Assembly (NCBI GenBank): GCA_036785375.1
Contig: JAWMAR010000113.1
Location: 124,001-188,000 of the forward strand
DNA: 64,000 nucleotides
DNA from: Leucoraja ocellata
Taxonomy: Eukaryota
Reading direction: 5' to 3'
In this document: positions 33,901-53,509 of the stretch, one piece after another
Layout of the letters: each line of letters starts with the position of its first letter
Position numbering within the stretch: position 1 is the stretch's first letter
Position numbers and translations under genes: made by a program
The notes under the pieces: model-generated
The model's database searches: none
What the model was told of the DNA's origin: nothing
Seen by the model: only the letters and a program-made list of their open reading frames with translations

Positions 33901-34237
33901 TCCAGGAAAAATGTTTACACTAGCAAAATAACAAAAGGAGGTGTTTCTTTGTGAGGCTATTGAACAAACTTGGATTATTTTCTCTGGAGAATCAGAGGCT
34001 GGGGAGATAACTGATAGAAGTGTTTACAATTGTAAGAGGCATAGATAGGTAGACAATCAGAAGCTTTATCCCTGAGTGGAAATGTCAAAGAGTAGAGGGT
34101 ATAGCTGTAAGGTGAGATGGGCAAAAGTTTAAAGGTGATATGGATGGCAAGTTTTTTTACACAGAGAGTGGTGGATGCCTAGAACGTGCTGCCAGGAGTG
34201 GTGGTGGATAGATGTGATAGTGGCATTGAAGCAGCTT

Positions 34238-34378
34238 CTTCTTCTTCTTGAGTATGGCGTGCACCGCCTAAAGTTGTAGGACAACTTGTTCTATTTGATC
34301 TTATTTGATTGTGCACGCCAGGTTGATTGCATTAGTCGAAACAGGGCGGACCATGTGAAGGTTGCAATCTTCCACCCC
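34238..34378 (-). mobile_element. Short ribozyme-headed non-autonomous retroposon with (GAA)n tail
   Basis: 13-bp TSD ATTGAAGCAGCTT at 34225-34237 and 34379-34391, (CTT)n on the + strand, inserted into a CR1 3' region. Confidence 0.85.
34325..34378 (-). ncRNA. HDV/CPEB3-like self-cleaving ribozyme with minimal P4, second copy
   Basis: Reverse complement reads GGGGUGG-AA-GAUUGCA-ACC-UUCACAU-GGU-CCGCCCU-GU-UUCGA-CUAA-UGCAAUC, with P1, P2 and P3 fully paired. Confidence 0.85.
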
Positions 34379-34551
34379 ATTGAAGCAGCTTTTGAATAGA
34401 TACACTGGATATGCAGGGAATGGAGAACTGTAAGCACAAAATGCTGGAGTAACTCAGCGGGACAGGCAGCATCTCTGGAGAGAAGGTGTGGATGACGTTT
34501 CGGGTCGAGACCCTTCTTCAGACCACATGCAGGCGAAGGAGATTAGTTGTT

Positions 34552-49427: not shown

Positions 49428-49628
49428 ACCCTCACACTTGGACTGAACAGCATGTTAATCAATGGTTACACTGGGCCGTGAATGAATTCAGTCTGCAAAA
49501 TGTCAACTTCCAAAAATTCTACATGATGGGTCAAGTTCTTTGTGATCTTGGGAAAGAATGTTTCCTGGAGCTGGCACCTGACTTCATTGGAGACATCCTC
49601 TGGGAACACTTGGATCAACTAATGAAAG
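49428..49628 (+). CDS. ETS2: ETS2 coding exon 4, PNT/SAM domain
   Basis: [23 protein letters not shown]...[22 protein letters not shown]. ttccag acceptor, G|GTACAG donor, 201 nt. Confidence 0.97.
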
Positions 49629-52560: not shown

Positions 52561-52649
52561 GTATGTCCTTGCCAATTCCATTGAGTGGTACATTTTGACA
52601 ATTACTTTTGTAGTCCAAGTGAACTGATTCCTTGTAATAAGATGAAAAT

Positions 52650-52703
52650 GGGGTAGAAGATTGCAACCTTCACGTGGTCCGCCCTGTTTCAACGAATGCA
52701 ATC
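52650..52703 (+). ncRNA. HDV/CPEB3-like self-cleaving ribozyme with minimal P4
   Basis: P1 GGGGUAG/CCGCCCU (G1-U wobble, one A-C mismatch), P2 GAUUGCA/UGCAAUC, P3 ACC/GGU, L3 UUCACGU, J1/4 GU, J4/2 CGAA. Confidence 0.85.
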
Positions 52704-52753
52704 AAATAAGATCAAATAGAACAAGTTGATCTACAACTTTAGGCTTGCGCAAG
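52650..52753 (+). mobile_element. Short ribozyme-headed retroposon, internally deleted copy, in an ETS2 intron
   Basis: Homologous to 34238-34378. TSD AAGATGAAAAT (52639-52649) / AAGATGAAAGT (52754-52764). Confidence 0.8.
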
Positions 52754-53509
52754 AAGATGAAAGTGGCTGTTTTTGTGATGCTTTGATCTCTGGCCACCAA
52801 GACACTCCATCTATTTTTTTTTTTAGAGCGGAAGGAAAGACCTTTTTGTATATTGCTGCCATGCAGGGTTATTAATGCTGATAATCACTAGTTATTTGTG
52901 TGGTGTAATAGAACTGTGGTCAGAAGTTTGCCACATGCTTCCCAAAACTATTTTATATGAATAGATTAGATTTCTTGTTTATGTCTGCCCAGAAAAATAG
53001 TCACAGGATGAATGCTGATTTTAACCGACTTTCCTGATTTTTGATCTAAAGTGGTTTCCTTGACCCCAAATAAACGTTTCCTTCTCTGAATCAATATAAA
53101 TTGACCTCTTAAAAACATTATGCAAGCCACTTTTCATATTACAGCTTATGGGAAAACTGTGTGTTTATTTTTCTGGCTTGGTGTTTGCAAGTGTAAGCAG
53201 GAGGTCAAAGCAAAATAGTTGATCCAAGTTTCCAAGCTGTGGTCAGTTTTGTCAGCTCAATTGATGTGTAGTGGGTTGGAGAGAGAATGAACCTGGGGGA
53301 GTATATATATATATATTGGAGCAACTCGAGCTGCCACATAGGAACCAAGTGGTGGCAGCCAACATAATACATTAAAAATAACTCCAGGTAATATTAGAAG
53401 TAACTGCTGATGTATTTTGAAGTCAGTTGGGTTTTTGTTGGCTGCATCCCAGTCAAAGAAAACAGTTTGTATATCATTCCTGACGATCTTTTCCTTCAAA
53501 TATTTTTAG

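Follow-up and report, generated by a model that had tools for sequence, protein, structure and literature searches.

What kind of element is a 141-nt repeat that begins with a predicted ribozyme and ends in a short AAG tail, and what machinery copies it? The locus lies on the minus strand at positions 34238-34378 of the window (the whole 64-kb stretch of DNA analyzed here), with nt 1 at position 34378. We propose, with a probability of about 0.8, that it is a bipartite derivative of a Vingi-like LINE, whose RNA is likely released at its 5' end when a predicted minimal ribozyme cleaves itself, and is then likely copied by the LINE protein.

The element, its insertion site and a second copy

The first-pass annotation described a minus-strand element of 141 nt with a ribozyme head, a stem, a hairpin and a tail, and each of these features was found where it had been placed. 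Genomic matches to the element are 95-100% identical in all 40 cases scored. The outer stem pairs nt 59-68 (5' arm, 34311-34320) with nt 115-124 (3' arm, 34255-34264) and the inner hairpin spans nt 92-108 (34271-34287); both are recovered by ViennaRNA. The tail consists of four AAG units (34238-34249). The global fold energy is ordinary, with a z-score of -1.55 and 15 of 200 shuffled sequences folding equally well, since ViennaRNA cannot form the pseudoknot. A search for a tRNA in the element found none, Rfam likewise gave no 5S- or 7SL-derived head, and no Pol III A or B box is visible by a simple consensus, as had been reported.

Comparison of the flanks shows a perfect target site duplication (TSD) of 13 bp, the upstream copy on the element strand being at 34379-34391 and the downstream copy at 34225-34237. 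The length announced earlier therefore stands. Since a G also follows the downstream copy, G1 may be included in the duplication (14 bp), and the coincidence of its edge with the cleavage site is uncertain by one base. When the flanks are searched separately, the host site is seen to be a degenerate 3' fragment of an abundant LINE, which we take to be CR1-like, on the plus strand at 34064-34425 and split by the element. An uninterrupted homologue of this fragment lies at 7104-6938 of the window, and the flanks of the element are collinear with it.

Local search of the window reveals a single further copy, internally deleted, on the plus strand at 52650-52753. Its 11-bp TSD (52639-52649 and 52754-52764, from flank comparison) has one mismatch, ending in AAT upstream and AGT downstream. 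The predicted core residues G25 and C44 are kept and P1 contains one mismatch. The copy stands in sense orientation between exons of what is presumably an ETS-family gene, as assigned from motifs at 49439, 56244 and 58151; it is a possible case of a predicted intronic ribozyme resembling that of CPEB3.

The deletion that removes the 5' arm of the outer stem sits between short direct repeats, and the 3' arm is also missing from this second copy. In a targeted search, 29 further loci were found, most of them without the 5' arm and many with TSD-like repeats when inspected by eye. None of 90 unselected copies has the deletion, which is therefore rare. That the outer stem is a requirement for the element is doubtful.

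A dispersed family built from the two ends of a LINE

A 21-nt pattern from the 3' part of the element occurs 4,048 times without mismatch in the 3.44-Gb genome (control 0), and a 17-nt pattern from its middle 11,133 times (control 2), the latter being present in 51 of 88 sampled short elements. Assuming that the two anchors decay independently, we estimate the family at ~19,000 copies. Matches to the middle pattern are also clustered at G000:C1:19261629-19431440, with a spacing of ~2 kb and in two opposite orientations, which suggests a copy carried inside a tandem array.

Individual copies were sampled as the first 90 of the 100 matches listed for the 21-nt pattern, a selection on the 3' end that favors younger copies. 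In this sample, 76 copies start at nt 1-4, 12 are 5'-truncated or rearranged, and two are 3' ends of LINEs. The 5' ends are thus uniform at G1 and not heterogeneous, and the family is not merely the 3' end of a longer LINE. Nine loci that duplicate a neighbor's flanks were dropped; among the 81 left, 68 are full length, starting at nt 1-4.

TSDs of 8-15 bp (mode 11-12) flank 54 of the 68 full-length copies, against 0 of 340 mismatched control pairs, and in 52 of these 54 the duplication ends at most one base from G1. Tails hold two to eight AAG units per copy. The expected combination of GAA tails with TSDs of 10-15 bp is borne out by these figures; the proposed AAG...AAT target motif is not, as AAG starts 5 and AAT ends 3 of the 54 TSDs. 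The first base of the TSD is A in 40 of 54 cases, consistent with priming at the AAG tail. Directly before G1, T is found in 36 of 68 copies against a background of 29% (p 3e-5), possibly reflecting the endonuclease target or a preference during second-strand synthesis. In the sampled copies (L061-L250), T is also enriched at -13/-14 and A at -11. Twelve copies carry extra bases between TSD and G1. No excess of G is seen among them, hence no sign of a copied cap, and this is mild evidence against capped templates.

We sought the partner LINE with a degenerate pattern derived from a Vingi-type reverse transcriptase (RT) motif. It occurs at 334 places in the genome (control 0), distributed over six or more families, and GAA tails are seen in several of these. 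In one of these, family A, 18 of 30 loci end in the last 41-47 nt of the element, at 88-98% identity. One locus, L129, additionally carries a separate short copy. Two near-full-length members, L151 and L152, share this 3' end and begin with nt 1-77 of the element at 87-88% identity; both are bounded by short direct repeats that resemble TSDs by eye. A search for long elements sharing both ends, as the first-pass annotation advised, is thus answered by these two loci.

As judged from the LINE alignments, the element is an internal deletion product: it comprises the first 77 nt of the LINE (34302-34378), a junction of ~17 nt and the last ~45 nt of the LINE (nt ~95-141, 34238-34284). The inner hairpin spans the deletion junction. 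The 5' arm of the outer stem has a less complementary version in the LINE 5' UTR, while the 3' arm and the AAG tail belong to the 3'-derived portion, so that both arms are already present in the LINE, ~3 kb apart. The initial description of a SIDE-like, tRNA-less, ribozyme-headed retroposon agrees with this bipartite make-up, the uniform 5' ends, the TSDs and the missing tRNA. The idea that the ribozyme is a new SINE head has to be abandoned, since the head is the 5' end of the partner LINE itself.

Just past the ribozyme, nt ~59-69 of L151 and L152 contain at least eight bases complementary to the LINE's own 3' terminus; such end-to-end pairing might favor internal deletion or full-length copying. 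Another family-A LINE, at L153:2493-2706, begins with ~215 nt that run in the opposite orientation to its body, an arrangement that resembles twin priming.

The partner LINE is degenerate and ~3 kb long; L151 and L152 each hold a broken single frame encoding an endonuclease, an RT and a Cys/His-rich C-terminus. In Pfam the N-terminal endonuclease match is weak (E 0.002, below cut-off), and RT matches are obtained as well. Frames are broken in all family-A LINE copies inspected, and no currently active partner was found among them. We label the partner Vingi-like on its architecture and the RT motif. Vingi elements are described as single-ORF and free of RNase H, unlike Ingi (PMC13708176). Pfam shows no RNase H match in the C-terminal half of sister family B or C, and the broken C-terminus of family A was read for RNase H by eye. 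Of the clades named earlier, RTE or Vingi/Ingi, the Vingi side is thus the one retained; an RTE partner was dropped once a Vingi-like family was found to share both ends.

The short elements themselves keep a record of this descent. Eight sampled copies form an older subfamily that retains the LINE states at positions 32, 45, 61 and 98 together, the linkage holding in 8, 8 and 7 of the 8 copies (p 4e-5 to 2e-8). In the main subfamily the U5-A32 pair has become U5.G32, the N position of J4/2 is altered and A61 in the outer stem is replaced by G. These fixed changes keep the ribozyme pairing and improve the outer stem.

A predicted ribozyme and its counterparts in sister LINEs

We wrote an HDV descriptor from general HDV rules. 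Its parse of the 54-nt head (nt 1-54, 34325-34378) predicts P1 at 34372-34378/34343-34349 (7/7 pairs, including G1.U), P2 at 34363-34369/34325-34331 (7/7), P3 at 34360-34362/34350-34352 (3/3), L3 with sequence UUCACAU at 34353-34359, a 7-nt linker at 34336-34342 where P4 would stand, and J4/2 as CUAA. The second pseudoknot would be C22-G37, the +1 base is a purine, and C44, the predicted catalytic cytosine (34335), lies within J4/2 and is retained according to both the parse and the comparison of copies. The head thus fits a predicted HDV double pseudoknot lacking a real P4. Alternatively, the linker in place of P4 could take up G37 and C44 in a 2-bp UUCG hairpin, in competition with the active fold.

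Searching both strands of the 64-kb window, the descriptor matches only the two copies, and it has no match in 172,840 background bases. This strict version misses decayed LINE heads such as those of L151 and L152. A relaxed version gives three background starts in the same 172,840 bases, one of which is a second real head, in L266. Rfam has no match at gathering level in the whole window, and at E 10 around the element it returns two unrelated weak matches and none to the head. For L063, a copy in which G25 is present, the sole Rfam match is HDV-F-prausnitzii, weak and in register (14.4 bits, E 2.5).

Across the family, G25 is kept in 53 of 64 sampled copies and C44 in 63 of 67, and fold and core are fully intact in 16 of 68. 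The copy at 34238-34378 has A at position 25 (34354). The attribution of this change to CpG decay fits its frequency: 11 of 64 copies carry G25A, and two further guanines in CpG context are altered at comparable rates (16 of 67 and 9 of 65). The same change abolished visible cleavage of a C. briggsae HDV ribozyme (PMC13635239), in keeping with the suspected impairment. By this analogy the copy is likely impaired, decayed and not a source of new copies.

Sister LINE families offer a comparison that the close copies cannot. The 5' ends of these families were located by search with the family-A endonuclease, and families B, C, D, F and G were found to show the same fold topology at their first shared base, with differing sequences. 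The heads of A, B, C, D, F and G all keep P1, P2, P3, P1.1, the L3 G and the J4/2 C, while the identities of pairs in P1, P2 and P3 are swapped between families, and P1.1 is C-G in five and U-A in family G. The P4 region is 20-46 nt long in the other heads as against 7 nt in family A, the shortest of the six. The first base is A in families B and F, and fold mismatches occur in the copies chosen to represent C and G. Family E also has the fold, the first copy examined lacking P1. In a further sister family (L254-L256), no fold parse was obtained in three copies, which are apparently 5'-truncated. The compensatory change across six LINE heads is our strongest evidence, drawn from sequence comparison, that the fold is probably under selection; it supports the fold rather than cleavage by the form without P4.

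Two loci, L281 and L297, hold a bipartite derivative of family E in which the 5' ~225 nt are fused to the final ~70 nt; family A is thus not alone in producing internal deletions. Family F (ribozyme-headed and Vingi-related; L266, L267) seems to recur on small contigs such as C2238, C2518 and C2566, sometimes as inverted pairs; we would guess that further endonuclease matches on small contigs belong to it.

Some of these heads resemble a known ribozyme. Compared with Rfam RF00622, the model of the mammalian CPEB3 ribozyme, for which the cut-off is 35 bits, heads of family D reach 56.6-64.2 bits and those of family E up to 50.2. The loci above the cut-off, at 50.1-64.2 bits, are L263:484-557, L264, L271, L273, L277 and L285 for family D and L284 and L299 for family E; 2 of 14 sources passed in a first set and 6 of 7 in a second, the latter having been picked by a pattern from family D/E heads. 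This pattern has 36 genomic matches. Among 30 loci examined, 19 run on into the LINE body for the whole remainder of the locus; the others match the first 70-430 nt of the LINE. The alignments to RF00622 contain long runs of identity through P2, P3, L3 and J4/2. The likeness exceeds what the fold demands, since sister Vingi-like heads vary freely in P2 and P3, and this favors common descent of the D/E heads and the CPEB3 ribozyme. On the other side, the stretch is short, and convergence on a favorable core is possible. The CPEB3 ribozyme and the family-A head have in common L3, a second pseudoknot with a single C-G plus U-U, and G1.U, whereas the family-A head lacks P4 and, including the copy at 34238-34378 and L063, has no RF00622 match. 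According to PMC8233481, the CPEB3 ribozyme is single-copy, intronic and reported only from mammals.

Proposed mechanism and comparison with known systems

In the mechanism that we propose, a copy would be transcribed from upstream, either by host read-through or from a promoter possibly located within the head. The 54-nt pseudoknot would then cleave 5' of G1, yielding a unit-length RNA free of upstream host sequence. The Vingi endonuclease/RT would recognize the 3' end that the element shares with the LINE, nick the target and prime on the AAG tail. On such a short RNA, reverse transcription would mostly reach G1, so that new copies would mostly contain the whole ribozyme, and the short element may thereby have out-replicated its parent LINE.

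A precise 5' end could likewise be given by an internal promoter (PMC3383444). The head might mainly be a Pol II promoter starting at G1, with the family-A fold a relic or weakly active. In the trypanosome elements L1Tc and NARTc the first 77 nt act as promoter and ribozyme (same source), and the 5' part shared here is likewise 77 nt; the family-A linker, the shortest of the six, and the lack of any Rfam match above noise also speak for this reading. Against this, family A keeps all helices and core residues, the changes between the LINE and the main subfamily left the structure intact, and untemplated G is not in excess at the junctions. P4-less HDV-like ribozymes are known, theta ribozymes being reported to cleave in vitro (10.1101/2023.06.13.544163), and the promoter and ribozyme roles are compatible with each other. 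We consider it unlikely that the promoter accounts for the head in place of self-cleavage.

The partner might also come from a clade other than Vingi, such as Ingi proper or a relative, the element being otherwise as described. Pfam, PDB and Atlas searches of the partner gave generic RT labels with no clade name. Yet a length of ~3 kb and a single ORF with an APE-type endonuclease followed by an RT match the description of Vingi in PMC13708176; the missing RNase H match in the C-terminal halves of sisters B and C and the retrieval of these loci with a Vingi-type RT motif point the same way, leaving another clade very improbable. Even less credence is due to a coincidental fold in an ordinary Pol III SINE or in a piece of some longer LINE. 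The small size, the high copy number and the modest z-score would suit such an element, whereas the absence of a tRNA and of A and B boxes, a head that is the LINE's own 5' terminus, unit-length copies with their own TSDs, and a descriptor with no background match do not. We thus retain the bipartite Vingi-like derivative with a predicted self-cleaving head.

A broader picture may be drawn, for which we see the odds as even: HDV-like ribozymes would stand at the 5' ends of LINEs throughout the Vingi clade, an active P4-less form of 54 nt would have seeded the ~19,000 mini-elements, some of them intronic, and the CPEB3 ribozyme would be the domesticated 5' end of a Vingi element or mini-element in a CPEB3 intron. 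A fossil Vingi, X12_LINE, is found in the human genome (PMC5753468), which places the clade in the ancestry of mammals. The sister heads provide outgroups whose lack is noted in studies of the CPEB3 ribozyme (PMC8233481), and the origin of this ribozyme becomes testable. In the literature covered, with most subscription papers, Repbase and patents outside the search, we found no report of a Vingi ribozyme, of the 34238-34378 family or of a transposon origin of the CPEB3 ribozyme.

The family is notable for its scale, its minimal fold, its Vingi clade and the CPEB3 lead. It brings a natural and very small eukaryotic HDV-like fold, as predicted here, and extends predicted 5' ribozymes to Vingi, a clade absent from lists of such ribozymes in the literature covered. 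Gene-insertion tools now being developed from Vingi keep its 5' UTR (PMC13708176). Bipartite derivatives of RTE and Vingi LINEs are themselves known: RTESINE, Bov-A and derivatives of Vingi-1_EE, like the element studied here, contain only 5' and 3' parts of a LINE and no small-RNA head (PMC5786205). That study gives no reason why these clades yield bipartite elements. A candidate answer to why only some LINE clades spawn elements of this kind is that their 5' end carries its own processing signal.

Trypanosomes and flies provide earlier examples of a ribozyme combined with a LINE tail; the present one is a mass-amplified vertebrate family. The closest parallel is NARTc and its partner L1Tc in Trypanosoma cruzi (Pr77, L1TcRz; Ingi clade). 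According to PMC3383444, the short element shares its first 77 nt and its 3' end with the LINE, and the HDV-like ribozyme cleaves just before +1, as the head here is predicted to do 5' of G1. NARTc is 263 nt long and ends in poly(A), whereas the element studied here has 141 nt, an AAG tail and a head lacking P4 whose ribozyme is predicted, in a vertebrate host, with a Vingi-type partner and ~19,000 copies. R2 SIDEs of Drosophila are likewise internal deletion products, in which a 5' ribozyme adjoins the parent LINE's 3' end; they are rare and confined to rDNA (PMC3414825), while the family described here is dispersed and abundant, with TSDs of 8-15 bp at varied targets. As for the fold itself, the minimal drz-Mtgn and theta HDV-like ribozymes also replace P4 by a short loop; they come from metagenomes and phages (10.1101/2023.06.13.544163), whereas here the predicted fold heads a eukaryotic retroposon.
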